Shown: positions 385 through 41,367, numbered from the stretch's first letter. The stretch is 64,000 bases of DNA from Flavobacteriaceae bacterium (GCA_026710085.1 JAPORT010000050.1:3227-67226), one strand, 5' to 3'. Notes: generated by a model from the sequence alone, not told the origin. Translations and numbers: made by a program.

Positions 385-1827
385 ATGAATAACCAAAGTG
401 TAGACCAAATATGGAATAACTGTAAAGCATTCATTAGAGACAATATTCAGTCAGAAAAAGAATTTTCAACTTGGTTTGGTTCCATTGAACCCATCGATTT
501 AAACAATAAAGAATTTACCATTAAAGTTCCGACCCATTTTGTTTATGAGACACTTGAGGCAAATTATTTGGACTTAATCCAATCGGCCCTAACTAAAGAA
601 ATAGGCCCCAATGTCAAATTGATGTACACCATTGATACAAAACAGAATGAATCAAGTAGTTTGAAATCTCCAAAATTTCAAGCTAAAGGAAATCTTGATT
701 TTCAAAGCCAAAAAAGACAAATGAATATTGTCCACTCTGGACAACCTGAGCGAATAAAAATTTTAGGTCTCAACAATGAACACTTTAGTCCTGAATTAAA
801 TTTAAACTACACTTTTGAGAATTTTGCAGAGGGAGATTCCAATAAGTTAGCCCGCTCTGTTTCATTAGAAGTCGCTAAAAACCCAGGTGGGACAGCTTTC
901 AACCCCCTTTTCATTCACAGTCATGTTGGTCTGGGTAAAACGCATCTTGTCAATGCCATAGGAATTCAGATTAAAAAAGATTTTCCTCAAAAATCGGTCA
1001 TTTACGTTTCTTCTGAAAAATTTACAGAGCAGTTTATTGCCGCTAGCTTGCATAAAGACAAAAACAAAATCAATAATTTCATTCATTTTTATCAACAATT
1101 AGATGTTTTAATCATTGATGATATTCAGTTTGTCACGGGGAAAGAAAAAACCCAAGGAGCTCTTTATAATATTTTCAATTATTTACATCAAAACAATAAA
1201 CAAATAGTGATGACTGCAGATATCTCTCCTAAAGATATGGAAGATATTGAAGAGCGATTATTGTCAAGGTTTAAATGGGGGTTAACTGCTGAAATAAAAA
1301 AACCTGATGTCCAAACTAGAAAAAACATCATCAAACTAAAAACCGAAAATCTCGGATTGAATTTAGACGAAAGTGTCTTGGATTTATTAGCAGAAAAAAT
1401 AGACTCTAATATTCGCGATATTGAAGGAGCTGTTGTCGCTATTTTAGCAGAAGCTTCCTTTAATAAAGTTTCGATAAATACGGAATTAGCCATGGGGGTG
1501 GTCAATCGATTGATTCGCGAAAAAGCAAGTCCAGAACAAGTTCCCTTTCATGTCATCGAAGATATTGTGGTTCAGTATTTTGAAGTGGATAATAAAGATT
1601 TGCGAACAAGAACCAAACGTAGGGAAGTCGTTGAGCCAAGACAACTCGTCATGCACTTTGCAAAAAAATACACCAAACTTTCTTTTCAAAAAATTGGAAA
1701 ACTAATGGGAAATACCAATCATGCAACGGTCATTTATTCTGTTCGCAAAGTGGATGAATTTAAATTGCACGATCGGATTTATAGAAATACCTATAATGCC
1801 ATTGATGAAAAAATCAAAAATTATTGA
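385..1827 (+). CDS. dnaA: chromosomal replication initiator DnaA
   Basis: AAA+ Walker A GLGKTHL, Walker B LIIDDIQF, C-terminal DNA-binding helix (HATVIYSVRKV). The track ORF opens at TTG 367; the in-frame ATG at 385 (MNNQSVDQIWN) is the more likely start. Confidence 0.95.
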   Translation: MNNQSVDQIWNNCKAFIRDNIQSEKEFSTWFGSIEPIDLNNKEFTIKVPTHFVYETLEANYLDLIQSALTKEIGPNVKLMYTIDTKQNESSSLKSPKFQAKGNLDFQSQKRQMNIVHSGQPERIKILGLNNEHFSPELNLNYTFENFAEGDSNKLARSVSLEVAKNPGGTAFNPLFIHSHVGLGKTHLVNAIGIQIKKDFPQKSVIYVSSEKFTEQFIAASLHKDKNKINNFIHFYQQLDVLIIDDIQFVTGKEKTQGALYNIFNYLHQNNKQIVMTADISPKDMEDIEERLLSRFKWGLTAEIKKPDVQTRKNIIKLKTENLGLNLDESVLDLLAEKIDSNIRDIEGAVVAILAEASFNKVSINTELAMGVVNRLIREKASPEQVPFHVIEDIVVQYFEVDNKDLRTRTKRREVVEPRQLVMHFAKKYTKLSFQKIGKLMGNTNHATVIYSVRKVDEFKLHDRIYRNTYNAIDEKIKNY

Positions 1828-2258
1828 CATCATCATAAATTTTTAATTTATTAAGACTTAAAAAGACTGATGAGTTTTCTATAGAAAAAGAGGGTTGATG
1901 CTTTGTTACGATCATTTTTGTTGAAATTCTCAAGTTGCAAGTCTTTTAACATCCCGACGCAAAGGTTCCGACATTGACAAAGATTCTGCGACCATTTGCA
2001 AGTTGGGGTTCGTCCGTACCCCTAAGTATTCAAGTGGCACAAAGCTTGGCATCAACATTTCAAATCAACTAGCTCAATAACACATTTCTGAGGATTTAAA
2101 TGATGATACCCACATCAAACACTCCGAATGAAAAAAATCATGATGTATTTATCCATCTATGTCAAAATAAAACTCAAAAGTGAAAATGATTCCTGAAAGT
2201 AGAGCGTATGTTCTTGACTCATGTGAAGCATCAAAACCTATTTATTAGAAAACTTTAA

Positions 2259-2280
2259 GGTACTACCACTATTTGTGTGG
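2259..2280. repeat. left terminal inverted repeat of the ISL3 relic (GGTACTACCACTATTTGTGTGG)
   Basis: Reverse complement of 3597-3618 with a single mismatch. Confidence 0.8.
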
Positions 2281-3608
2281 AAAAGCCATTTTTTGTTGTC
2301 TCCATTCTCAAGAAATGGAGTCTTCTAAGGCACTATATTTTGATGGTTCCTTTAGTTTTGATTCACGAATCAACTTTTTCAATATGGAAGTATCCTTTAA
2401 AATCCGTTAAACGGACCAAAGATCTCATGACCAAGGCCTTGGAACTAAGCGATGATTGGTTGATCGATGACTTCTACATGGGTCAAAAAGACTTGGTGAT
2501 CACGGTCGATGTGTCCCATACTGGTGGGGATCTCATCTGCACCGAAACCGATGAAGTCGGCACCCTCGATGACCATCGTCGTCAACGCCAATGGCGTCAT
2601 TTGGATTGATTTCAGTATCGATGCTTTATCCGCTACCGAGTCCCTCGCGTCCAGTCTTCTGCTGGCATCAAAACCATCAACATCCCTTGGGCCGATATTT
2701 CCCATCGCTTTGAATCTTGGGCGATTCAAGGGATGCTCCACAATAAAAATCAATACAAAACGGCGGAAACATGACGATGTGGTGACCACACCATGAGTCG
2801 GGTGATCAAGCGTTCCGTTGCTCGTGGATGAGCGAGACGATCGAACATGGTTCCCGAACGTTGAAGGATTGATGAGAAAGCCGATTAAAGAGGACATCGG
2901 TAGGCATCTGTGGTCAGCGATGCGACGACAAGAACCGTGTGGGATATCGCTCAAGGAAGATCTCAAAAAGCAACCATCGATTGATTAAAAAACGTGCTTC
3001 CTAAAGACCAAAGAAAGGGCGTCAAAACCGATACGGCTGATCGGTGGCAACCCTTTAGCAAAGTGAAAGAACTCGTGTTACCTCAAGCTCCATGAATTCA
3101 CAATCGATGCCATCTCATCAAACACATCCACCAGGGCATCGATCAGACCCGTCGATGGGAAGTGAAAGAGCTTCCCGATGTCTTGAAAAATAGGCGATAG
3201 GCCGTTTTGAAAAATCCAGAAAACCGAACCGAAAAACAACAAAAAATCTTTGAGAAGGTCGTCCAAGCCAATCTCAAAGGAGGCATCGCTTATCAATCTA
3301 GAGACGTCTTCAAAGCCTTTTGAAACGGTCAAGACATGGCTCAAGCATGTCGCTATTTCACTCTTTGGTATCAACACGTCATGAAGGCCGGTCTCCAACC
3401 AATCATGAGAGTGGCACAGATGTTCCGAAAGCACCTCGATGGGGTATGACACGCTATGATTCACAAACCATCCAGTGCTCGAGCCGAACGAATCAATGGG
3501 AAAGTACAGGAAGTCATCACGGTGGCTAGAGGGTTTCGAAACGATGAAAATCTCAGAGCCTCTGTTTTATTCTTTTGTGGCCATTTGGATCTCTTTCCAC
3601 ACAAATAG
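2277..3608 (+). pseudogene. ISL3-family transposase, multiply frameshifted with stops
   Basis: Pieces recognisable across all three + frames: ...LDDHRRQRQWRHLD, INIPWADISHRFE, LPQAP-IVhDRFHLIKH-like segment (HEFTIDAISSNTSTRASIRPVDG in the shifted frame), and C-terminal ...ARGFRNDENLRASVLFFCGHLDLFPHK* ending at TAG 3606-3608 inside the right IR. Confidence 0.7.
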
Positions 3609-3618
3609 TAGTAGTACC
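3597..3618. repeat. right terminal inverted repeat of the ISL3 relic (CCACACAAATAGTAGTAGTACC)
   Basis: Reverse complement of 2259-2280 with a single mismatch; contains the transposase stop codon. Confidence 0.8.
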
Positions 3619-3681
3619 ACAAGTATTAGATCAAGTATATATCCTACATCAACTAAGGAATTAACAATTCATTAACCTAAG

Positions 3682-30438: not shown

Positions 30439-32658
30439 TTAACGTTTGAATTTAGCATAGTCGGGGAGTAATTGTTTTAAAAGCGAGTTTAATTTACTAA
30501 AGTCTGGAACTCTATCTAGTTTTTCTAATCGATTGACTTCATGAGCTATTTGGATATGCCAATGATTACTCGAGTCAAATAATGGAATGGGAATGGATTT
30601 GAACGGACTTTTGTGATAGTGCATTTTGGATGTTTTAGTCCATCGCCAAGCTGGTTGCATGTTGGGTGCATTGATGACCCCAACAAGATATTGAGCTTCT
30701 TGTTCAGATTCACATAAAATATAGTACAATTTGGAATTTGCAATGATGTTGCGTGGAATTCTTATAGCCCTTAACGTATTGCCGGAAGAATTATAGACCA
30801 CTTTTGTTCTTGTCGTATCATCGCCACATTTGTTTAATTCATCTTCTAAATCTCTCTTAAATCCATAATTAAGTTCTAAAATTGGTTTAGACCTGTCCAT
30901 ATCTCTTTTTTCATCATATTGTTTTTGACATTTTTTCCAATATTGATGAAGATGAGGATATAGCCTTTTTCTTTCCAAATTTTCATTCTTCAATACATCA
31001 ATTCCATCCACTCCTAACATTAATTTTTGGTTTTTATCTAATGGTGCAATGAGCCACATTTCTGGTTCGTAGTTTAATTGTTTCAAATGTTTGCTATCGA
31101 TTAATGGAAGTAAACACTCGGATTCAATCATTCCATCAAATCCACAATTTTTCCAATCGCCTCTGGTTCCTTTTTGTGTGAATATTTCAGATAACCCCTT
31201 TTCCTTATCCATTCGTTTTAACACTTGGAAGTAACAAAATGGGCCAAAAAAAACCCCTCTTTCTACTTTATCCAAATATGGAGATTGAGCATGATTCATT
31301 GAATTGATTTGTTTTATCATTGGATTTTCTACATAATTTCCACTGAATCGAAATACTTGATGAGTTTTGAATTCAACTTTTTCATCGGTCGTTTTTCCCA
31401 ATACAACACTGCACCCATTGGGTGAATGTGCAAAAATGGGTGGTTCAACATCGGTTAAGTCCCACATTTCTTGATGTTGTACTTTCACATTCTTCCAGTT
31501 GCCTTCACGCCATTTTCTCCATGCCTGTCCAATGATGGGACTCTTGGGCAATACCCAGCCATACCCTCCTCCTTTTTGAGGTAAATAAAGCCTGATTGTT
31601 CTTGCTGTAAATAAACATGCTAAATCAACATTAGCCAAATAACCATTGGTTCGAGTATAGACCCCTTCGTCTTTTGCAATTTGTTTGTAAAGTACCTTTC
31701 TGATGGACTCTTGAGCATTATTTTGAACTAACCATGGGGGATTGCCAACAATACGCCCTACCCCTTTGGAAAAAAGATTGGTTAAGTATACTTTATTACG
31801 AATCAACCATTCCCAAATATGATTACCCTCTTCTTCAATGATTTTCTTCAAATCTTCATATAACGTTTTGACTGAACCTTTGATCCCTTCATCAAATTCA
31901 TCCAAACGGATCATTTTATTTTGAGTCACAATAGCATGGTTGATTGAGGAAACAATATTTGAAAAAAAGGGGTGATGATACAAAACACTTGAAATCTGAA
32001 TGGTGCTTTTTGGTGTTTTAATATCAATAAATAAATATTTGTCTCCGACATTATATTCATTTAGAGCACTACCAAGACATACTCGATAAGCTCCATCATG
32101 GAGTGAATCTGTTAAAATTGCCCTTAATGTTGCTTTACTCATCTCAACGGCAATAGGATGAATATCGATTCCATGAACTAATCTCGCAATGATTTTTGAG
32201 GCATGAAATAATTTGTCCTTATGATTCCGTCTTATTCGATTCTTTATGTGGATCGCGGACTGCAATAAAAAGGTTCCAGAACCACATGATGGATCAAGGA
32301 CTCCCAAGTATTCATCATTCGTGGCCTTTCCCATCATCAAATGATAGGCTCTTTCAATCGATTCATCCAACCAATCATCATCTAAGACTTGTTCCACCAC
32401 ATCTTTTGCCAAATAATCCGGCGTGTAAAACTCCCCAAATTCCTTTCTTTGCTCTGGCGGTGTTAAAGCATGATACAAATATTTCAAAACATCTTGTGAA
32501 TAAAATTCCCATTGATATTTTTGAATTTCAGAGGCCAACTGTATCATCAACTTTTTGGTTGACCGATGTTCCAATAGCCAAGCATGAAAGCCATCGCCTA
32601 CATAGTCGACCAACTCTTTTTTGGATAACGTCGGATGATCTAAATGGCCAATAATCAT
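30439..32658 (-). CDS. N6-adenine DNA methyltransferase + target-recognition part of a Type IIG/IIL (MmeI-like) R-M enzyme
   Basis: FGEFYTP, motif I LDPSCGSGTFL, motif IV GNPPW, long C-terminal TRD. The same frame stays open upstream with no stop as far as 32992, through the homopolymer at 32967-32975. Confidence 0.8.
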   Translation of the reverse strand: MIIGHLDHPTLSKKELVDYVGDGFHAWLLEHRSTKKLMIQLASEIQKYQWEFYSQDVLKYLYHALTPPEQRKEFGEFYTPDYLAKDVVEQVLDDDWLDESIERAYHLMMGKATNDEYLGVLDPSCGSGTFLLQSAIHIKNRIRRNHKDKLFHASKIIARLVHGIDIHPIAVEMSKATLRAILTDSLHDGAYRVCLGSALNEYNVGDKYLFIDIKTPKSTIQISSVLYHHPFFSNIVSSINHAIVTQNKMIRLDEFDEGIKGSVKTLYEDLKKIIEEEGNHIWEWLIRNKVYLTNLFSKGVGRIVGNPPWLVQNNAQESIRKVLYKQIAKDEGVYTRTNGYLANVDLACLFTARTIRLYLPQKGGGYGWVLPKSPIIGQAWRKWREGNWKNVKVQHQEMWDLTDVEPPIFAHSPNGCSVVLGKTTDEKVEFKTHQVFRFSGNYVENPMIKQINSMNHAQSPYLDKVERGVFFGPFCYFQVLKRMDKEKGLSEIFTQKGTRGDWKNCGFDGMIESECLLPLIDSKHLKQLNYEPEMWLIAPLDKNQKLMLGVDGIDVLKNENLERKRLYPHLHQYWKKCQKQYDEKRDMDRSKPILELNYGFKRDLEDELNKCGDDTTRTKVVYNSSGNTLRAIRIPRNIIANSKLYYILCESEQEAQYLVGVINAPNMQPAWRWTKTSKMHYHKSPFKSIPIPLFDSSNHWHIQIAHEVNRLEKLDRVPDFSKLNSLLKQLLPDYAKFKR

Positions 32659-32944
32659 TCGGGAAACAGAAACAATAAAAGAATGCCGCCAAAAAATGTC
32701 AGCCTCTATGGTTGGAGCACGATCTGGAATGACTCCTGCGTTTTTTAAGATGATTTTCCAAACCCCAATTTTCGTATGGTACTCCGTTGTTGACTCTAAT
32801 TGTTCCGATTGAATCGTACTTTTGATATTACTAAAAATCGGCTTGAAATCTTTTTCAAGTAAATTTTCTTTGGATGGTATTTTTATTTTTTGAACCCCTT
32901 TCCATCGATCATAGATGGAATCTTGGAGATATTGATGAATGGAT

Positions 32945-33367
32945 TCAGGGGTTTGAAAGGCTTTTGCCCCCCCCCATTTTTTCAGATTCTCTTAATTTTC
33001 GATGGTTGCTATCGTAATCATAACACGCCCATAGCTGGCCATCCGTGATCATCCCTTTCCAAACAATCGATTGACCTTGATTCCATAATTCATTATTAAA
33101 ATTGGGCACAACGCCATCAAGGTATTTTAATAATTGAGTTTTATTCTCTTCAATGTTCATCTGACCTCGTTTTTTGGTTTCGATGACCACTTTATTTGAA
33201 AATGAAATCATATCACATAACCCTTCTGATGTTGAAAAGTTTTGAGTCCAATCGTCTTCACTATTGAGTTGCCGAAAAATCATCTTTAGAAGGGTTTCAA
33301 GATTTCTTTCAGCACTATCAAGTTGAATTAATTCTTGATAGAGGTTTTCTTGTTCTTGATTCATCAA
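32945..33367 (-). CDS. PD-(D/E)xK endonuclease module of the Type IIG enzyme (truncated 10 codons after the G9 tract)
   Basis: CDMISFSNKVVIETKKRGQ...QLLKYL has the same D-x(10-11)-ExK-x-RG...Q..Y layout as MmeI-family nuclease domains. It reads into the methylase frame if the tract is G8 or G11. Confidence 0.65.
   Translation of the reverse strand: MMNQEQENLYQELIQLDSAERNLETLLKMIFRQLNSEDDWTQNFSTSEGLCDMISFSNKVVIETKKRGQMNIEENKTQLLKYLDGVVPNFNNELWNQGQSIVWKGMITDGQLWACYDYDSNHRKLRESEKMGGGKSLSNP
32967..32975. repeat. homopolymer C9 (G9 on the coding strand) at the nuclease/methylase junction
   Basis: Counted directly (cttttgCCCC CCCCCatttt). Tract length sets the reading frame between ORF 32945-33367 and the methylase frame. 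Confidence 0.95.
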
Positions 33368-33521
33368 ATATTTTTTTTAAAAAGCCATATTCTTGTTTAG
33401 TCACCAACATTCTTCTAGAAAATTTTTGTGTCAAAAGTATCATATCCTATTTGTTTTTTTGACTTGCAAAACGTTTCCTTTCGGGGGATCATGTTGAAAT
33501 TCATTTGATTCGTTTATGGAT

Positions 33522-34406
33522 TTATTCATTGTAAGGATCATACCCTTTGATGCTTTTATATCTCTTTTGGATTGTATCTAAGTGAGCTCCTTTTTTGGTG
33601 TCTTTCATACGCATTTCTCTTATAACGTATTTGAAATAAGAAATAGCATGATTAAACATATAATTGATAAAAGGTTCCATACTCTTATCATGCCATGAAC
33701 ATCTCAATGAGTATTTATAGAGTTCTGCATTATTTTCTAATATAGTTGTCAGTGGTTGTTTATGATAACCTTGTACATAGTTCATTAATAATCGACTGAT
33801 TCGGCTATTGCCGTCACCAAAAGGATGAATAGTTATTATGTCATAGTGCATTTTAAAACTTAATTCATAGATATCTAATACGTCTTTTACTTACCGACAT
33901 TTAGCATTATTTTCGACAAGTATTTTAGATAATTGAGATATCACTTCAGAATAGTGAATGAATTCATGTTTCGCATTTTTATTGAACTCCCATTCAACTT
34001 GGTAATCTCTTATTTTTCCCGAAGATCTATTGACGACCCGTCCACTTTCTATCATTCCAAGATTATTTATTTTATTCAATAATATTTTATTGACTTCTTC
34101 AATCATTGGTATTTCTATCGAGGTTTTAAATCGACAAAAATTGATCACCTTGTACAATGCATTGATATGGTTTTTTACCATTTGATCGTGCTCTACTGGT
34201 TTTCCAGAAGGTTTTCCATACTTCTGTAGTAAAGCCACTTCTTTTCTAGTCAGAGTACTTCCTTCAATTTTGGTGCTCTGCTCGGTAAGCAAAGCAACTA
34301 AGTCTTCTTGAATAAAAGAAGAATTAGAAATCAATTTTTTATAATTATTTACTTGGTTTAAGAATTCTTTTTTATCAAACGATTCTAAATTGTCCAAATT
34401 CATCAA
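33522..34406 (-). pseudogene. Fic-domain protein (class II, internal inhibitory SxxxEG helix) interrupted by one in-frame TAA
   Basis: ORFs 33891-34406 and 33522-33851 are in the same frame, separated only by TAA (33891-33893) plus 13 sense codons: ...ENNAKCR*VKDVLDIYELSFKMHYDIITIHPFGDGNSRISRLLMNYV. The Fic motif is HPFGDGNSR (G to S at the penultimate position). The inhibitory motif STKIEG is in the N-terminal part. Confidence 0.75.
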
Positions 34407-34729
34407 GCCATCAGTTTGTGTGAATTTTTGAATTCGGATTTATAATAATCAATGAAGAATTTGTCAACAATCTCTCTTAATGCACGAATGTGTCTCACAT
34501 CCAATCTTTCTCCTTTTTCATTTGATTCTTCTAAATCGTTTATAAAACCAATAAAATTCAACCAATTCAAACAATCTCGTTGCTGATGATGATCAAAATC
34601 AAATTCAACATTATCGTATGGATTGCCATTTTTATTAATAAAACTCCTGACGTAACTAACTAATTCTTTTTGCTCTTGTAGGGTGGCTTTTGTTATCGAA
34701 GAGTTTTCTGATTTCACTGCTTTATTCAA
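34403..34729 (-). CDS. hypothetical protein, 108 aa, overlaps the Fic start by 4 nt
   Basis: ORF only (TTG start). The overlap (ATGA) suggests co-translation with Fic. No family recognised and no SxxxE(G/N) antitoxin motif. Confidence 0.4.
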   Translation of the reverse strand: MNKAVKSENSSITKATLQEQKELVSYVRSFINKNGNPYDNVEFDFDHHQQRDCLNWLNFIGFINDLEESNEKGERLDVRHIRALREIVDKFFIDYYKSEFKNSHKLMA

Positions 34730-34892
34730 TTTATTTAGGCTTGATATTGCCTATGACAGAACCTTGAGCTACTTTGCAAAAAATAATCTTAAGAAATCTC
34801 TGAATAACGCAAAATTAAAAAAATGAGGTACTACGAGGAAGTTATCTTTTCTTTTCAGCCAATGAATCCACCATTCCATGTTGCTTTCCTCC

Positions 34893-34900
34893 AATTTTAG
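34893..34900. repeat. flanking direct repeat AATTTTAG (putative target-site duplication)
   Basis: Identical 8-mer abuts the other end at 36223-36230. Confidence 0.8.
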
Positions 34901-34923
34901 GGGAATTATATACTTTCATAACC
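34901..34923. repeat. TIR (GGGAATTATATACTTTCATAACC)
   Basis: Reverse complement of 36200-36222 apart from one position. Confidence 0.9.
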
Positions 34924-36174
34924 ATTATTTATTGAATGATTATTCCAGTCCGATTGACACTTCAATGTATTCAGCCCTTCATATCCATGACTGGATATAA
35001 TGGGTCTTACAAACACTCCATGTCCGTTTTTTAGCATGGTCCCCTTCCCCGAGGCCCATATATTTCGTGCTGCATTCACATCCGCGTTCTCCGTATGACC
35101 ACATTGCTGACAAACAAATTGCGATTGTGATAAACGATTATGCTTTGATACATACCCACAACAAGAACATGTTTGAGATGTATAGGCAGGATTGATTTTA
35201 TGAACCATTCCTCTCGCCGATAAATGCTGTTCCAATTGATACCATCCCGTGCCTAATATGGCGCGATTTAAACCTGATTTTGATTTTACATTTTTACCAG
35301 GTTGGTCGATCGTCCCACGAGCAGACGCCGTCATGCCTTTGGTTCTCAGGTCTTCCATGACGATGGAACTACTCTTAGTGGTGATTTGGTTTGCGATATG
35401 TATTAAATCGTTTTTTCTGATATTTTTTATTTTTTCATGGTGTCGATTGATCGTTAATTGTGTTTTGTAGGACCGACGACTCCCCTTTTTCTGTCGAGCT
35501 TTCTTTCGTTGCCAATATTGGATTCGTTTTTGAATCGAATCCGTATTGGTTAAATGATATAACTGCCCTTGATGATCCGCTACTTGTCTGACATTCCGAT
35601 CAATACCAATCCCTAACCCATCCTCTTTTTGTTCCATCGCATCCACTTGATAACATACCGTTAAGTACCATTTCCCCGTGGTGGATTGTATGATACGAGC
35701 ACATTTGGGAATAGGATTTTGATAACGATTTAATTGCTTATGATAATGAATCAATTTAATATCATGTCCTTTCTTCATTCTAAAATAAACGCCATCTTCT
35801 TTTGTTTTGAATCGATCATTCATTTCAATCGGTATGGATGGTCGGTTTCGATGTTTGCTCTTAAATCGTGGACGCCCTCGTTTTTTAGTCACGAAAGCAC
35901 GATAAGCATCAGACACATCTTTTAATATCACGCGTGTTATTGATCTTGGATAATTTTTCAACCAAGGAGCGGTTTGATTTTTATAGATAACATACCATCG
36001 ACATAATGAAAAAAAACTAAAATCTGATTTTTTAGTGGTTTGATATTGTTTGTCAATCATTTCTAACGCCGCATTCCATAAATGACGATTCGCCCCCGAT
36101 ATTTGATGTAGTAAACGATAATTCGATGGCGAAGTCCGAATCCGATAACGTATTTGAATGTAAGTTTTCTTCAC
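34906..36174 (-). CDS. tnpB: TnpB (IS200/IS605-family OrfB, RNA-guided RuvC nuclease)
   Basis: Split RuvC residues GIGIDRN (D), IVMEDL (E), NADVNAARNI (D) and zinc ribbon CSCCG...CQQCG. GTG start. The stop codon lies inside the terminal repeat. Confidence 0.85.
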   Translation of the reverse strand: MKKTYIQIRYRIRTSPSNYRLLHQISGANRHLWNAALEMIDKQYQTTKKSDFSFFSLCRWYVIYKNQTAPWLKNYPRSITRVILKDVSDAYRAFVTKKRGRPRFKSKHRNRPSIPIEMNDRFKTKEDGVYFRMKKGHDIKLIHYHKQLNRYQNPIPKCARIIQSTTGKWYLTVCYQVDAMEQKEDGLGIGIDRNVRQVADHQGQLYHLTNTDSIQKRIQYWQRKKARQKKGSRRSYKTQLTINRHHEKIKNIRKNDLIHIANQITTKSSSIVMEDLRTKGMTASARGTIDQPGKNVKSKSGLNRAILGTGWYQLEQHLSARGMVHKINPAYTSQTCSCCGYVSKHNRLSQSQFVCQQCGHTENADVNAARNIWASGKGTMLKNGHGVFVRPIISSHGYEGLNTLKCQSDWNNHSINNGYESI

Positions 36175-36199
36175 TACTCTATAAAGATACGACTTTTTT

Positions 36200-36222
36200 G
36201 GTTATGAATGTATATAATTCCC
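36200..36222. repeat. TIR (GGTTATGAATGTATATAATTCCC)
   Basis: Reverse complement of 34901-34923 apart from one position. Confidence 0.9.
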
Positions 36223-36230
36223 AATTTTAG
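36223..36230. repeat. flanking direct repeat AATTTTAG (putative target-site duplication)
   Basis: Identical 8-mer abuts the other end at 34893-34900. Confidence 0.8.
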
Positions 36231-36396
36231 CCTATTCGGCTCCATATTCAGTCCTTTTTGAACCGAATATGGGTTTCAAGGCCTCTTTTTCCTTAATTCC
36301 TCTTTTGAGAGTTACCATATAAGCTACCATACCTAGTGATTTCTTTGGGACTTATGTATTTAATTTGAATATTGTTATCGTGTTTAGGTTCCTAGA

Positions 36397-36418
36397 CCCA
36401 CTTCGGTGGGATTTTTTT
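36397..36418 (+). terminator. intrinsic-terminator-like hairpin CCCAC-TTCG-GTGGG followed by A + T7
   Basis: Seen directly: GC-rich 5-bp stem, UUCG tetraloop, T-run. No + strand gene lies upstream of it. Confidence 0.4.
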
Positions 36419-36431
36419 GTATCTCCGTCGT

Positions 36432-36668
36432 ATGATTACTGAAAAACAAAAACAATTTGTCATCGAACAAATGAAGCCTTTTGATCCCATTGAAATCAGG
36501 GTTTTTGAAAACACACCAACATCAGTTGGCTTTTTCTACCATTTCAAAAAACCTTGTGGTCTTGATTTTGTGGATATTTGGGATGCCATCGAAGACAAGT
36601 TTCAAAAACAAGCTCGATTTGTCCGAATTCCTGATATAGCCATCACACACCCTTATGATCAAGAATGA
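36432..36668 (+). CDS. hypothetical protein, possibly a degenerate MNT-type nucleotidyltransferase antitoxin
   Basis: The suggestion rests only on position directly upstream of a possible HepT/DUF86-like relic and on its small size. The canonical GS...D.D motif is not recognisable. Confidence 0.3.
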   Translation: MITEKQKQFVIEQMKPFDPIEIRVFENTPTSVGFFYHFKKPCGLDFVDIWDAIEDKFQKQARFVRIPDIAITHPYDQE

Positions 36669-36699
36669 ATATTAAAAAATAAAGAACTCTTTTATTCCA

Positions 36700-37017
36700 A
36701 TGAATCCATTAAAAAAACATCTGAACATATTGGATATCATCATCGATGAACTCGATCACGTTTTTCAAGATTTTAATCTTTCTTTGACTTGGGAAATATT
36801 TACAAAAACTCGCTAACTCCAACGTTCTTCGATGGCATCCATGATTCTTATAGATAATGCTTTTAAAGATATTGAACCTTTTTTCAGGAAAGGATATTAT
36901 ACGGCTTATTGGCGTCAACATATTCGATTAAGCGATAACGTAGCTCACTTATATCATGGACTTGATATTGGAACTCTTTGGGATACAGTTCAAAGAGACG
37001 ATCTTTTATTGCAATAA
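36700..37017 (+). pseudogene. possible HepT/DUF86-like toxin relic with an in-frame TAA
   Basis: My translation: MNPLKKHLNILDIIIDELDHVFQDFNLSLTWEIFTKTR*LQRSSMASMILIDNAFKDIEPFF...YWRQHIRLSDNVAHLYHGLDIGTLWDTVQ. The stop is at 36814-36816. The DUF86-like C-terminus has the RNxxxHxY positions altered to SDxxxHxY. Confidence 0.45.
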
Positions 37018-37535
37018 CAATGAATCGCTTTGAAAAAAGAATTAACGCAACAAAGTAAAACAACCAAAGGAACACAACAAACACCTAACGATTCTTCTGT
37101 TCAACGATGAGTCAGAACTTCTCCATCAGTCCAGCTCAAACTTTGTTTGATGGATCGCATTATTTTTGGAATATCGATATTCATCAATTGGATTGATTCT
37201 AACGAATCCAAAAAGAGAAAACTCTTATTCAAGATAAATACACAAGTCCCTTTTATTTCATAATGCTTTGCCTTATTCAATGGCACTAACAGTAAAATCA
37301 AATACCACACATAAAAGAACTCAAAATTAGTATAACTAGATGGTAGATAAGGCTTGACGCATCATCTGTTGTTATCCATAACTTGTATTATACCATTGCC
37401 ATAAAGCCCTTTGGTGGGATGAATAAAAAGTTAAGATTAGAATGATGGTGGAAAGAAGGATGAGAAATGAAAAAAAAGAAATTGTAATCTTTAATCCATC
37501 CTTTTAGGAGGATTTCTAGCACTACCTTGACTTGA

Positions 37536-38720
37536 TTATAACAAATCAAACATCCGTTGTATTCTCACACTTGGTTTATGACCAATCATCTTTAAATAGT
37601 TTTGATATTCTTGCAACATCCAAGTTCTTAAAGATGGAATCGGGATTTGATAAAATCCATCAGGACGCATCTGCAAAACACCCCAGGAAACCAAGTCTTG
37701 AAACATCTGTTTCGGATCGCCAACAGTAGGGTTATTTTTAAAATCTGATTTCACTTGAGTTCCTATCACTATGTTTTCATGCTGTTCATTTTCAAATAGA
37801 GCATGATAAATGGACGCTCTTTCTTGTGCTTCCAACTCAGCAAAACGTTCATGATAATAAGTCTTTTTTTTACGACGAGATTCCTTTAATACTTCCGATA
37901 ATAAATCTTCTGACAATTGCCCACCTTCTTCTTTTATTTTTTCCAATGCCACTTGTCCATAGCACGAAACATGATGAGCCCACTGATGTGTTTCTTTTGA
38001 CATTTGATTCACCCAATGATTAAGATTCGAATCAGTAACAGCAACTCTAGCCCCTTCCACCAAATAATCTTTCAAAATATTATTTTCTGCTTCTTTGTCT
38101 AGTATGCTTAAATTAATGACATAATCATCATTGAATCTTGATATTTCAAAATCTTTAAATATTTTTCGGGTATGACTTAATCCAGTAATTAAAAAAACCA
38201 ATCCATGTTTTAATTCAAGATTATGAATTTCATCGAATAAGTTGGCTATTTTTTTTGTTTCAAGACTATCCTTGGTGATGCCAATACGAATCATTTGTGC
38301 TTCATCTAAAGACAGTATAATGGGTTTATCAACAGCCTTAACCATTTTTGAAATGCTAGGTTCAGTTCTATCATACCGCATCTTTTTCCTGAGCACTTTA
38401 AAATTTATTTGAACCTCTTTTGATGTTTTATCATAATTCTTTTCACCAATTAAAGCATTTTGTAATCTGCTGACATTTAATAAAGCATTCAATTCTAATT
38501 TCACGACATGGCAACCTCTTTTTTTCATTTGTTTCCCAAACTCATTTAAAAGAGCTGATTTACCAACACCTGGTGCTCCTTGTATTAAGATCGAGTGACT
38601 TTTTTGATTTTTTTTAGATAATGCTAAAATTTTATTGAAAAAGTTAATTTCTTGTTCTCTCCCATGAAAATAATGTGCTGCTCCACGATCCGTAACCGCC
38701 ACTCTTTTATGAGAACTCAT
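37536..38720 (-). CDS. P-loop NTPase (AAA+/archaeal-ATPase-like), paralog 1
   Basis: AHYFHGREQEI, Walker A QGAPGVGKSALL, Walker B ILSLDEAQ, C-terminal DGFYQIPIPSLRTWMLQEY. ATG 38720 (MSSHKRVAVTDRG) preferred to the TTG track start at 38768. Confidence 0.7.
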   Translation of the reverse strand: MSSHKRVAVTDRGAAHYFHGREQEINFFNKILALSKKNQKSHSILIQGAPGVGKSALLNEFGKQMKKRGCHVVKLELNALLNVSRLQNALIGEKNYDKTSKEVQINFKVLRKKMRYDRTEPSISKMVKAVDKPIILSLDEAQMIRIGITKDSLETKKIANLFDEIHNLELKHGLVFLITGLSHTRKIFKDFEISRFNDDYVINLSILDKEAENNILKDYLVEGARVAVTDSNLNHWVNQMSKETHQWAHHVSCYGQVALEKIKEEGGQLSEDLLSEVLKESRRKKKTYYHERFAELEAQERASIYHALFENEQHENIVIGTQVKSDFKNNPTVGDPKQMFQDLVSWGVLQMRPDGFYQIPIPSLRTWMLQEYQNYLKMIGHKPSVRIQRMFDLL

Positions 38721-38774
38721 ACACACGAAATTAACAGATTTCGCTAATCCGTGCCGTATCGCTAACAAAAAATG

Positions 38775-38805
38775 CCTTGAAAAGGAAATTATATCCTTTC
38801 GTAAC
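38775..38805. repeat. inverted-repeat arm B (CCTTGAAAAGGAAATTATATCCTTTCGTAAC)
   Basis: Its reverse complement aligns with 40264-40296: GTTACGAAA(A)GGATATA..TTCC..TTTT.AAGG, roughly 28 of 33 positions by eye. Confidence 0.65.
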
Positions 38806-38870
38806 TAGTAGTTATATTAATTAAACTTATGATATGGCGATTCGAATGGGATCGGGTAGCGTGTCCAATT

Positions 38871-39344
38871 TTATCCAAAACCTCCTCGATTCGCAAAGTT
38901 CGCAAATTCACCCTGATTAAAAACCTGTTCTAGTCGATTTTTGCCTGATTGATCCAGCAACCATTGTCGCGCTCCATCTGAATACCCACCACCATCAAGA
39001 AGAATCATCGTATTGTATTGACTTTGATTGATGCACAAAACTTCATACGGATATTTTTCTTCAACACTTCCGCCAGAAGCTTGCCACTTGCATTGAATAG
39101 CCAAACAGCTTGGATATTGTTTTGGGTGATAAAGAATTAAATCGACCAATCGTCTTTTGTCGTAAATACTCTTACCTGTCTCAAACTGCCTCGAATAAAT
39201 GGGTTGATTCTTTTCACGCATTGGTAAAAATCGATGCGGTTCGGTATATCGGTAACCTCTTTCCTCCAATATTTCAGAAGCAAACCGTTCTAGTCTTTTT
39301 CCAGACGTATTAGCACGTGTACCACCGCTTTTTCGTCGTGACAT
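38871..39344 (-). CDS. small PD-(D/E)xK-type nuclease, putative restriction endonuclease partner of the Dam-like methylase
   Basis: GKRLERFASEILEERGY ... VDLILYHP...LAIQCKW fits a D...(E/Q)xK core. Its ATG overlaps the methylase stop by 1 nt (TAATG), implying translational coupling. Confidence 0.5.
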   Translation of the reverse strand: MSRRKSGGTRANTSGKRLERFASEILEERGYRYTEPHRFLPMREKNQPIYSRQFETGKSIYDKRRLVDLILYHPKQYPSCLAIQCKWQASGGSVEEKYPYEVLCINQSQYNTMILLDGGGYSDGARQWLLDQSGKNRLEQVFNQGEFANFANRGGFG

Positions 39345-40164
39345 TATTTCTTACTAGTGATCAAAAGCTCCGTCACTTGTTGACGTTTGGAGGCTTTACA
39401 ATTGATATTTCTAGAGGCTTGAATTTGATTGATCTGATAGCCTTTCCACGTTTTCCTTATAAAATCGGTATCACTGTTTGATACAATAATGCGAGCTCCT
39501 GCCTCGGCCCAAGAATCGCACATTTCCCTTAATTTGACTTGGCTATCTCTATTAAAACCTGAATTTGTATACTGATCGTATGTTTCATCGTAAGGTGGAT
39601 CGCAATACACTAAGTCATGATGACCTGGCCTGATATGCTCAAATGATTGAACTTTCAAATCAACAGATTCTAACACTTCTGAAACTTTCATTAAATTCAT
39701 TGTATCATAAATCTTAGGATTCTTGTATTTTCCTATTGGAACATTAAACCGACCAACTTGATTGACTCTATAAAGCCCATTATAACACGTTTTGTTTAAA
39801 TAGATAAATTGAGCTGCCAACTTCATAGCATCTTGCCCATGATTATATTGGGAATTATATTCTTCTCTTATGGAATAGTAATGTTCTTTTGAATGCTTTT
39901 TTTGATAGTCAGATAGTTGTTCAATGACCTTTCTTGGTGATTTCTGCAACATTCGATAGGTCAGCATCAAATCAGCATTGACATCGCTTAAAAAAGCCTT
40001 ATGATGTATTCTGCTATTCAGTCCAAAAAAAACGGCACCACCGCCTAGAAAAGGCTCATAATAATCATTAAATGGGGGGGGGCGATAAACCTTTCTATAT
40101 GAGAAATTAACGCTCTTTTTCCGCCAGCCCATTTAAGAAATGGGTATGCTTGTGATGGGTTCAA
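39344..40164 (-). CDS. Dam-family (alpha-class, DPPY) N6-adenine DNA methyltransferase, frame interrupted at a C9 tract
   Basis: From TTG 40164: [30 protein letters not shown]. The frame is then lost. The downstream ORF has [16 protein letters not shown] (motif I) and VYCDPPY (motif IV). Motif X (KWAGGK) and motif I are in different frames with 9 C and in one frame with 10 or 7. Confidence 0.8.
40074..40082. repeat. homopolymer G9 (C9 on the coding strand) inside the 5' end of the Dam-like methylase
   Basis: Counted directly (aatGGGGGGG GGcgat). Confidence 0.95.
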
Positions 40165-40263
40165 TTTAAGGTAAAAAAATCGTCACTAAATTACGTTAAA
40201 AAAAACTGGATGAATCATCAATTATTAGAATATGGCTATCCATTATATCTCAACCACTGAGTG

Positions 40264-40296
40264 GTTACGAAAAGGATATACTTCCCCTTTTTAAGG
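40264..40296. repeat. inverted-repeat arm A (GTTACGAAAAGGATATACTTCCCCTTTTTAAGG)
   Basis: Aligns with the reverse complement of 38775-38805. It overlaps a small perfect hairpin AACCAC-TGA-GTGGTT (40252-40266). Confidence 0.65.
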
Positions 40297-40311: not shown

Positions 40312-41367
40312 TTAAGAGAACACTTTAAGGTTGTTTTCATATTCTTGAAGCATCCAAGTCCGCAACGATGGAATGGGAATCTGGTAAAATCCATCCGAAC
40401 GCATCTGTAAAATACCTTTTGAAATCACTGTTTGGAAAGTTTTTTCGGGGTCTTGAAATCGTTGCACTTTTTTTAAATCCAATAAAGCATCAACTCCGCT
40501 GATGAGATTCTCGTTGATTTCATGATCGAATAGAGCATGAGATATCGCTATCCTTTCGGATGGTTTCCATTCATCAAAAAGTCCTTGATAATACTCCTTT
40601 TTCTTTTCACGCGATAGGACTAATATCTTATCCAATACATCTTCGGTTAACTGTCCATTATTCTTTTGAACAAGTCTTGAAACTATCTGTCCATAACAAG
40701 AAAGATAATCAGGCCATTGATGCGTTTCATTAGTTAAAGTATGAATCCATTGGCCTAACTTTGGATGATCCGGATGGACACCAGTCCCTTTGACTAAAAA
40801 ATCTTGAAGGATGTGCTTTTCGGCTTTTTTATCCAAAGTTTCCAATCGGAAAACACAGCCACTATTGAAACGTATGATTCGAAACTCATGGAAGAAACTC
40901 CGAGTATGAGTCAATCCGGCCATCAATAGAATCAGGCCATGTTCCGTATGGAGATTATGTAATTGATTTAATACGCTAACGGTTTGCATGATTTTAGAAT
41001 GTTCATGCCGATAGCCGACACCCAGCAAGTGGGCATCATCCAAGACCAACAACATCGGTTTTTGAATGGCCTCAATAGTTCTGGATATGCTTGGAAAAAG
41101 GCCATCCGTTTTGGCTTCACCGAATAAAATCTTTTGGAGGGAATCGATACACCATAAAGATTCTAATGTTAATGTTGCTACCGTCCAACCACTCTTTTCT
41201 CCTACTTTTTCGAGTTCTCTTAGTAATGCTGTTTTACCAACACCAGGTGCTCCTTGCAAAAGCACCGTGTACCCTTTTTGACTTTTTTGTGATAAGACTA
41301 CAATCGATTGGAAAGCATGGATTTCTTGTTCTCTTCCATGAAAATAATGGGCTCTTCCACGATTCAT
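40312..41367 (-). CDS. P-loop NTPase (AAA+/archaeal-ATPase-like), paralog 2
   Basis: AHYFHGREQEI, Walker A QGAPGVGKTALL, Walker B LLVLDDAH, C-terminal DGFYQIPIPSLRTWMLQEY. Colinear with paralog 1 over its whole length by eye. Confidence 0.7.
   Translation of the reverse strand: MNRGRAHYFHGREQEIHAFQSIVVLSQKSQKGYTVLLQGAPGVGKTALLRELEKVGEKSGWTVATLTLESLWCIDSLQKILFGEAKTDGLFPSISRTIEAIQKPMLLVLDDAHLLGVGYRHEHSKIMQTVSVLNQLHNLHTEHGLILLMAGLTHTRSFFHEFRIIRFNSGCVFRLETLDKKAEKHILQDFLVKGTGVHPDHPKLGQWIHTLTNETHQWPDYLSCYGQIVSRLVQKNNGQLTEDVLDKILVLSREKKKEYYQGLFDEWKPSERIAISHALFDHEINENLISGVDALLDLKKVQRFQDPEKTFQTVISKGILQMRSDGFYQIPIPSLRTWMLQEYENNLKVFS

Follow-up and report, generated by a model that had tools for sequence, protein, structure and literature searches.

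The 64,000-nucleotide (nt) stretch of DNA from a Flavobacteriaceae bacterium analyzed here (hereafter, the window) is of a Bacteroidota chromosomal type. Among restriction-modification (R-M) and ATPase genes, it carries a 1322-bp unit (positions 34901 to 36222) whose sole gene is one intact tnpB. The ends of the unit form a 24-nt inverted repeat (34901 to 34924 and 36199 to 36222; 96% complementary). The two arms of the 23-nt terminal inverted repeat (TIR) agree in 22 of their 23 nt, and this 23-mer occurs in two places only in the window, with 0.00 matches expected from shuffled sequences. As tnpB is encoded on the minus strand, the TIR upstream of the gene (36200 to 36222, minus strand; GGGAATTATATACATTCATAACC in the tnpB orientation) is referred to as left and the downstream one (34901 to 34923, minus strand; GGTTATGAAAGTATATAATTCCC) as right. 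Each arm abuts a copy of the same 8-mer, AATTTTAG, which can be read directly from the window sequence at the right end (34893 to 34900) and recurs at the left end (36223 to 36230), where it corresponds to CTAAAATT in the tnpB orientation. We refer to these copies as the target site duplication (TSD). The unit, its TIRs, and the flanking 8-mers had been noticed in an original prediction made from the sequence alone, and all of them are present at these positions.

The tnpB open reading frame (ORF; 34906 to 36174, minus strand), delineated by ORF calling and by domain and structure matches, encodes 422 amino acids. It starts with a GTG codon that aligns with the ATG of relatives, and 25 nt lie between this codon and the upstream TIR. 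It ends with a TAA codon (34906 to 34908) within the downstream TIR, which thus codes for the last residues, G-Y-E-S-I, and the stop; this spacing is as originally predicted. The 25 nt that separate the left TIR from the start codon (36175 to 36199, minus strand; AAAAAAGTCGTATCTTTATAGAGTA) are kept in an alignment of close relatives and presumably form a promoter or ribosome-binding region.

The product was assigned to the TnpB family by NCBIfam guided_TnpB (4e-61) and by the Pfam families HTH_OrfB_IS605, OrfB_IS605, and Cas12f1-like_TNB, the last of which matches the zinc-ribbon region with 5e-18. Solved TnpB structures, including that of ISDra2 TnpB, match the protein with E values of about 2e-12. 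In the family alignment, D192, E274, D365, C336, C355, and C358 occupy invariant columns, and C339 is nearly invariant (at least 90%). All of the following are on the minus strand: the codon of the RuvC-I aspartate D192 (GIDRN; 35599 to 35601, checked against the sequence), that of the RuvC-II glutamate E274 (MEDL; 35353 to 35355), the zinc ribbon C336/C339 ... C355/C358 (35101 to 35169), and the codon of the RuvC-III aspartate D365 (NADVNAA; 35080 to 35082). The protein thus has the TnpB fold, the RuvC D-E-D triad, and the zinc ribbon of an OMEGA nuclease. The triad and ribbon had been called intact from the window sequence, and the alignment bears this out. Judging from them, the gene looks functional.

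When one genome per species was scanned, relatives were found only in the Flavobacteriaceae metagenome-assembled genome (MAG) OZ241330.1, which contains two full copies and one 3′ fragment with about 87% protein identity to the window TnpB. Both full copies have the TIRs of the window element but different TSDs, AATTAAAA and TAATCGAT. More distant members were collected from other metagenomes by protein search and context retrieval, followed by scripts that located TIRs and TSDs. No TnpB relatives were found in IMG/VR, and those on plasmids were all below 35% identity. Altogether, 13 full-length TnpB elements from other genomes and metagenomes share GGnrATTAT... ends at protein identities of 44 to 89%, the best relative of the window TnpB being 89% identical. 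In every member of the clade, the ORF ends as ...ATA TAA TTCCC inside the right TIR. Perfect 8-bp TSDs, every one different, flank 10 complete elements that have GGnrATTAT(A/G)T ends and are located at unrelated sites (CTAAAATT, AATTAAAA, TAATCGAT, AAAAAGAG, ATAATTTT, TCTCGTTA, AACAATTA, AATGATAT, ATTTTAAA, and ATATAAAA); in three further TnpB elements, the TSD is decayed (two cases) or absent (one case). The combination of TIRs and TSD is therefore not a chance similarity: the further copies that the original prediction suggested looking for exist, and they have the TIRs and, in most cases, the TSD, the lack of which would have undermined it. No empty site was obtained; a look-up of a 108-amino acid ORF flanking the element gave no record.

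Two relatives have unusual surroundings. At L016 (6902 to 6923), the left end of a tnpB element, GGGGATTATATACG..., directly follows GGGAATTATAA; this element appears to have landed in the tip of a further TIR of its own type, with AATTATAA as the target 8-mer. At L050 (1146 to 2781), a tnpB element is without the first bases of its left TIR, and an IS110-family transposase gene is located ~540 bp upstream.

Elements with tnpB alone are usually classed with the IS200/IS605 family, whose members have no TIRs and no TSD, carry subterminal hairpins, and are moved by a Y1 transposase (PMC13565253). Since the protein is a TnpB, the window unit could be an ordinary element of this kind (IS1341 group), moved by Y1 TnpA, with the repeats and 8-mers being coincidental. 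Instead of asymmetric ends with subterminal hairpins, however, it has symmetric ends with a 23/24-nt TIR conserved across the clade, and 10 elements have perfect 8-bp TSDs that differ from one another. There is also no fixed 4- to 5-nt target motif before the left end: a single G is common in the left flanks of the TnpB elements, with nothing fixed beyond it. Last, the ends are common to DDE elements of the IS1595 family (see below). We therefore give this explanation almost no credence, in line with the poor fit to IS200/IS605 noted originally.

The IS1595 connection came from transposase searches. With a consensus-like IS1595 transposase as the query, annotated IS1595 transposases were retrieved from plasmids; one of the annotated insertion sequences (IS) of this family, ISRm32, has GGCCTTTATAAACC ends and an 8-bp TSD. 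An alignment of four real IS1595 transposases yielded 43 IMG/VR loci (an earlier alignment of seven sequences was too diverse for the scan). A GGGAATTATATAC-like sequence is present ~40 to 120 nt upstream of the transposase gene in 13 of the 43, and in 5 of these 13 (L064, L100, L067, L066, and L082), its inverted partner is also found downstream. The L064 element (1419 to 3304) has the TIRs GGGAATTATATACTTGACAAT and GGGAATTATATACGTCACAAT and a perfect TSD, ATACTTTT; the L100 element (1411 to 3143) also has a perfect TSD, CTCGACGG; the remaining three have both ends and imperfect flanks. The left end is evident at seven more loci. The transposase ORFs of these IMG/VR elements match DDE_Tnp_IS1595 (6e-26 to 2e-45), with Zn_ribbon_IS1595 in four of the five scanned. 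The elements begin with GGGAATTATATACTT, as the window TIR does; the first 15 nt are identical, and 16 to 19 of 23 positions match overall. DDE IS with TIRs of this type, such as the original prediction suggested searching for in the genome and its relatives, are thus present in IMG/VR. The ISNwi1 group of IS1595 in ISfinder has ggnnatTAT ends, an 8-bp TSD, and often passengers; our assignment rests on the sequences described here.

Other searches contributed less. The TIR pattern GGGAATTATATNNNNNNRTAAC gave 23 single, unpaired matches in IMG/VR, which by our estimate is about the chance level, and those examined were in phage genes or at contig ends. On Bacteroidota plasmids, the ends of IS1595 elements (L041 to L043 and L047) were either of a different kind or could not be detected, and four further IS1595 elements, alphaproteobacterial and gammaproteobacterial, were mostly uninformative in this respect.

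The window element has the TIR type and the 8-bp TSD of the IS1595 family but not its DDE transposase with the N-terminal zinc ribbon (PF12762/PF12760). In tblastn searches, neither the window nor the loci of the GGGAATTATAT-ended elements yielded an IS1595 transposase, and the only matches across the 275 kb searched were weak IS1595-like fragments (about 26 to 29% identity) at two loci, L013 and L015, of the sister TnpB clade described below. More generally, no transposase gene was found inside or adjoining any of the 13 TnpB elements examined. Since its only ORF is tnpB, the window element is a derivative rather than an autonomous IS1595 member, an IS1595-type shell with tnpB in the place of the transposase. 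With IS ends and a TSD around a passenger gene and no transposase, it corresponds to a mobile insertion cassette, or non-autonomous cargo IS.

That elements with such ends can be moved without tnpB is suggested by a nested insertion. The tnpB copies of L007 and L005 are each interrupted by an element with the same terminus (GGGAATTATATA) and its own 8-bp TSD (ATAATGCT), whose sole cargo is an AAA_16 ATPase (L007, 2008 to 3437; L005, 2094 to 3522). Therefore, a trans-acting factor moves elements that have these ends and no tnpB. This result also bears on the idea that TnpB itself inserts the element as an autonomous tnpB-only transposon, the 8-bp TSD arising from a staggered cut. Cas12-type nucleases do leave staggered ends, and no transposase was found with any copy. 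The same ends and TSD are nevertheless present on the ATPase-only element and on IS1595 elements, both without tnpB, and the insertion sites are mutually unrelated, unlike what guide-directed cuts would produce. This scenario can, in our opinion, be practically dismissed.

Cargo other than tnpB also raises the question of whether an unrelated tnpB was inserted by chance into an older element with TIRs, be it a host element or a miniature inverted-repeat transposable element, to which the repeats would then belong. The same ends indeed bound the ATPase of L007, DNA methyltransferases (N6/N4 and C5) carried as passengers inside IS1595 TIRs at L064 (2439 to 3290) and L067 (2575 to 3267), and possibly an R-M gene pair of the window. 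In the TnpB clade, however, the ends and tnpB stay together across 44 to 89% protein identity, the stop codon is always in the right TIR, the inner TIR takes part in a conserved RNA helix (see below), and no IS605-type ends are found inside the unit. Since ends, tnpB, and RNA helix travel together, they form a long-lived integrated unit rather than a recent nesting, and chance insertion into a foreign shell appears very improbable.

A further candidate for the mover is a transposase of the ISL3 family, which likewise makes 8-bp TSDs. A sister TnpB clade (42 to 45% identity; elements at L012, 3845 to 5411; L013, 6908 to 8336; and L015, 6908 to 8341) has ISL3-type TIRs, GGCTCTAATCACTTTGTTGTGGAAT, and the two bases before the putative TSD are TA in all three elements. 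At L012, an IS with an ISL3 transposase (6991 onward) starts with a 25-nt TIR identical to that of the TnpB-only element on the same contig. ISL3 remnants are also found in the window (2259 to 3619) and near copies in L001 and L002. The ISL3 ends, GGCTCTAATCAC... and GGTACTACCAC..., are nevertheless unlike GGGAATTATATAC, which is the exact terminus of IS1595 elements. Ends of the GGCTCTT type were not observed on the window element; they are confined to the sister clade and to the decayed IS. Movement of the window element by an ISL3 transposase is thus most unlikely. Since the sister clade resides in ISL3 ends, TnpB must have entered two DDE families with 8-bp TSDs, either through capture or by moving from one to the other.

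The ISL3 remnant of the window is a decayed IS of that family (2259 to 3619) with its own TIRs, GGTACTACCACTATTTGTGTGG and GGTACTACTACTATTTGTGTG. Its gene (2427 to 3599) is a pseudogene ridden with stops, with a 395-amino acid tblastn match (43% identity, E value of 8e-90) to an ISL3 transposase. As the sole DDE remnant of the window is this pseudogene, whose ends are unlike those of the tnpB element, it was rejected as a mobilizing partner.

Together, these results make it probable that the 34901 to 36222 unit is a non-autonomous IS1595-family derivative that carries tnpB as cargo and is moved in trans, which is essentially the trans-mobilized TnpB cargo of the original prediction: the ends and the 8-bp TSD match elements encoding DDE_Tnp_IS1595, and the unit has no transposase of its own. 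Such a unit has retained the IS1595 TIRs (GGGAATTATATAC...) and inserts with the 8-bp TSD of the family. With tnpB in place of the DDE gene, it is almost certainly moved by the transposase of another element, presumably an IS1595-family enzyme encoded elsewhere.

The compact layout of the unit has a consequence for the guide RNA. Since there is no noncoding right end, any omega RNA must overlap both the ORF and the TIR. Conserved structure was indeed located in this region, where the original prediction had placed it. RNAalifold analysis of 12 family members revealed three helices in the last ~160 nt. For 15 helix pairs in these 12 sequences, 98.9% of cells were paired, versus 36 to 53% when the partners were slid; compensatory changes were observed in 9 of the 15 pairs, and the covariation score was 0.68, versus 0.05 to 0.22 for the slid controls. 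In four of five measures, shuffles never reached the observed values. The window sequence alone folds with −46.2 kcal/mol (z = −2.9) and has an extra 3′ hairpin that extends into the inner TIR and leaves a single-stranded ...AUAUAAUUCCC tail. Comparable hairpins were seen by eye, unscored, in distant members. In a sliding comparison of nucleotide identity along the element, the 3′ RNA region did not clearly stand out as more conserved, and the case for an RNA therefore rests on covariation.

On the basis of covariation and folding, we delineate a putative omega RNA (reRNA) scaffold that covers the right TIR as well as ~50 codons at the 3′ end of tnpB (34901 to 35057, minus strand). Its predicted fold, also on the minus strand, comprises helix 1 (35057-35038), helices 2 and 3 (35024-35013 paired with 34970-34956), and a 3′ hairpin (34949-34912) whose 3′ arm is in the inner TIR and whose tail, GAAAGUAUAUAAUUCCC, is single-stranded. 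A structured RNA that extends from the 3′ end of tnpB to the transposon end is as expected of an OMEGA system, the transcript being putative, and the conserved 3′ RNA is most simply an omega RNA. If the RNA reads through the right end, then by analogy with TnpB and Fanzor reRNAs (PMC10711439), the guide would be the flank, predicted as CTAAAATTGGAGG..., with the segment CTAAAATTGGAGGAAAGCAA (34881 to 34900, minus strand) comprising the TSD and adjacent DNA.

The sequence preceding the insertions was analyzed further. In the tnpB orientation, a G directly precedes the left TSD in 12 of 13 cargo elements, i.e., in 11 of 12 TnpB elements (sample: position 36231 of the window and loci L001, L002, L004, L007, L009, L011, L016, L017, L049, L052, and L053) and in the ATPase element. 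At the ends of autonomous IS1595 elements, the corresponding base is G in 6 of 16 cases (Fisher P = 0.006 versus cargo elements), and at the mirrored position after the right TSD, the equivalent base is found in 2 of 10 (Fisher P = 0.0007 versus left). Since the bias is one-sided, a symmetric target preference of a DDE transposase cannot produce it. One might speculate that this G is the footprint of a target-adjacent motif ending in G. Where the element is absent, the match to the guide would be preceded by G; where it is present, the match would be preceded by the C of the TIR tip, so that only empty sites would be cleaved.

In the reading that we favor, the last ~160 nt of the unit, into the right TIR, encode a conserved structured RNA, most simply the omega RNA; transcription through the element end would add the TSD and flank as the guide; and the nuclease would cut element-free copies of the locus, favoring retention of the element. 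The TIR ending in C at the motif-equivalent position could, speculatively, spare the occupied site. A bolder model, which we regard as possible though doubtful, is that the TnpB/omega RNA module works as a retention or homing device for an IS1595-type DDE cut-and-paste element, with the TSD and flank as the guide, with a G-ending motif that would explain the 12 of 13 surviving cargo insertions, and with the C of the TIR tip protecting the occupied site.

Several observations weigh against the derivation from IS1595 and the homing model. The inner TIR positions (about 16 to 23) differ from those of the IS1595 elements, which makes recognition of the window TIRs by a given IS1595 transposase uncertain. 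The IMG/VR contigs that carry the matching IS1595 elements are taxonomically unassigned. An Rfam scan of positions 33500 to 37500 revealed no relevant family, and we infer, rather than observe, the omega RNA, the guide, and the nuclease activity. The G preceding the TSD was seen in a small sample and is also present at the one element that carries an ATPase but no tnpB. Homing is expected to bring less gain to a DDE cut-and-paste element than to an IS605 element (PMC13565253). Last, the copies of one MAG share only 84.5% identity with each other and 88% with the window copy; with identities of only 84 to 88%, recent mobility is not evident, and the sequences give no sign of recent movement.

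This divergence without recent spread also fits a copy that is now immobile, with ends that are relics and a tnpB that the host has co-opted, for instance for defense or for RNA-guided regulation. The window has a single copy, located in a restriction/defense island, and most TnpB clusters are described as immobile in the main text of Altae-Tran et al. (PMC10691335). However, the protein retains its catalytic residues, unlike TldR-type regulators; the TIRs have a single mismatch in 23 positions, the TSD is perfect, and relatives occupy many unrelated sites. Co-option is thus unlikely.

The surroundings of the element were also inspected. It is adjoined by a region (30439 to 34729) that encodes an Eco57I-like methylase/restriction fusion (30439 to 32658), a DpnII-like fragment (32945 to 33367), a Fic-domain fragment (33522 to 33851), and two ORFs without a Pfam family; the region is a defense/R-M island with several gene remnants. 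On the other side of the element, a PD-(D/E)XK nuclease gene (38871 to 39344, minus strand) and a Dam-like D12 methyltransferase gene (39344 to 40132, minus strand) are located between TIR-like sequences (38784 to 40286). The brackets of this R-M pair, GGAAATTATATCCTTTCGTAACT and, inverted, GGGAAGTATATCCTTTTCGTAACC, match the TIR of the tnpB element at 19 and 16 of 23 positions. No direct 8-bp TSD was found around the pair; an inverted similarity runs about 9 nt outward instead. The pair may be an old IS1595-type cargo element, like the methylase passengers of L064 and L067. It is flanked by two paralogous ATPase genes (37536 to 38768 and 40312 to 41367), and AAA_16/AAA_22 ATPase genes such as these recur beside tnpB elements, as seen at L002 (3120 to 4295) and L004 (6215 to 7315).

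TnpB is normally tied to IS605 transposons, which move scarlessly as single strands, or to the serine-recombinase IS607 transposons, and in prokaryotes, it is rarely linked to DDE transposons. Like members of the IS1341 group, the window element is ~1.3 kb long and filled by a single tnpB; it differs from IS200/IS605 in its TIRs and TSD and in not having subterminal hairpins with a Y1 transposase. As the defining features of IS200/IS605 fail, its tnpB is no reason to class it with that family, and the blanket label “IS200/IS605 family” for tnpB-only elements can be wrong. The IS1595 family, as represented by ISRm32 and the IMG/VR elements, shares GGnnATTAT... ends, the 8-bp TSD, and frequent passengers with the window element but has the DDE_Tnp_IS1595/Zn-ribbon transposase where the latter has tnpB. 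Mobile insertion cassettes, such as MIC231 of Bacillus cereus, and transporter IS likewise have IS ends around a passenger and no transposase and are moved by the cognate IS. In contrast to theirs, the passenger here is a transposon-derived RNA-guided nuclease whose putative RNA is fused to the IS end.

The closest prokaryotic precedent is the set of six DDE-associated TnpB branches (DDE-1 to DDE-6) with inverted terminal repeats described in the main text of Altae-Tran et al., PNAS 2023 (PMC10691335), together with solo TnpBs that have the same ends and are presumably moved in trans. In those branches, as in the window element, TnpB is part of a TIR transposon and the 3′ end of tnpB is near the transposon end. 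Unlike in the branches as presented in that main text, every copy found here is without a transposase and has its stop codon inside the TIR. The DDE partner named there is IS630, to which a 2026 review adds ISL2 and IS1031 (PMC13565253); here, the presumed partner is IS1595. Neither IS1595 nor ISL3 appears in the main text of PMC10691335, and no description of an IS1595-TnpB link was found in the searchable literature, judged largely from titles and abstracts. An undescribed element class, which had been offered as an alternative in the original prediction, is therefore not supported, the general idea of DDE-linked and solo TnpBs with inverted ends having been published in 2023 (PMC10691335, main text). 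The related concern that the clade might be routinely TIR-bounded and already described proved justified for the TIRs; for the link to IS1595, no such description turned up in that literature.

The 2026 review argues that links between TnpB and DDE elements in prokaryotes are of little benefit (PMC13565253). The clade studied here, in which the nuclease gene, the presumed guide RNA, and the DDE-type end are tightly fused, with the stop codon and one RNA helix inside the TIR, is compact and offers an easily tested case for RNA-guided homing with a target-duplicating transposon, for avoidance of self-cleavage, and, with two sister clades that have IS1595 and ISL3 ends, for the movement of tnpB between transposon families.

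The element is a bacterial parallel to Fanzor1 and Fanzor2* of eukaryotes and their viruses, in which a TnpB-type nuclease is likewise carried by a cut-and-paste transposon with TIRs and TSD that is often non-autonomous (PMC10711439; PMC3627910). Unlike Fanzor, the window element is bacterial, belongs to another transposon family, and encodes a canonical TnpB that is compact and has its RuvC parts arranged as usual. Fanzor reRNAs incorporate the TIR and TSD into their scaffold (PMC10711439), and the layout of the putative omega RNA, here deduced from sequence alone, is similar. If the homing model is correct, then the OMEGA strategy would be transferable to transposons that make target duplications, and in this clade, bacteria would have a counterpart of the Fanzor arrangement, possibly its forerunner.

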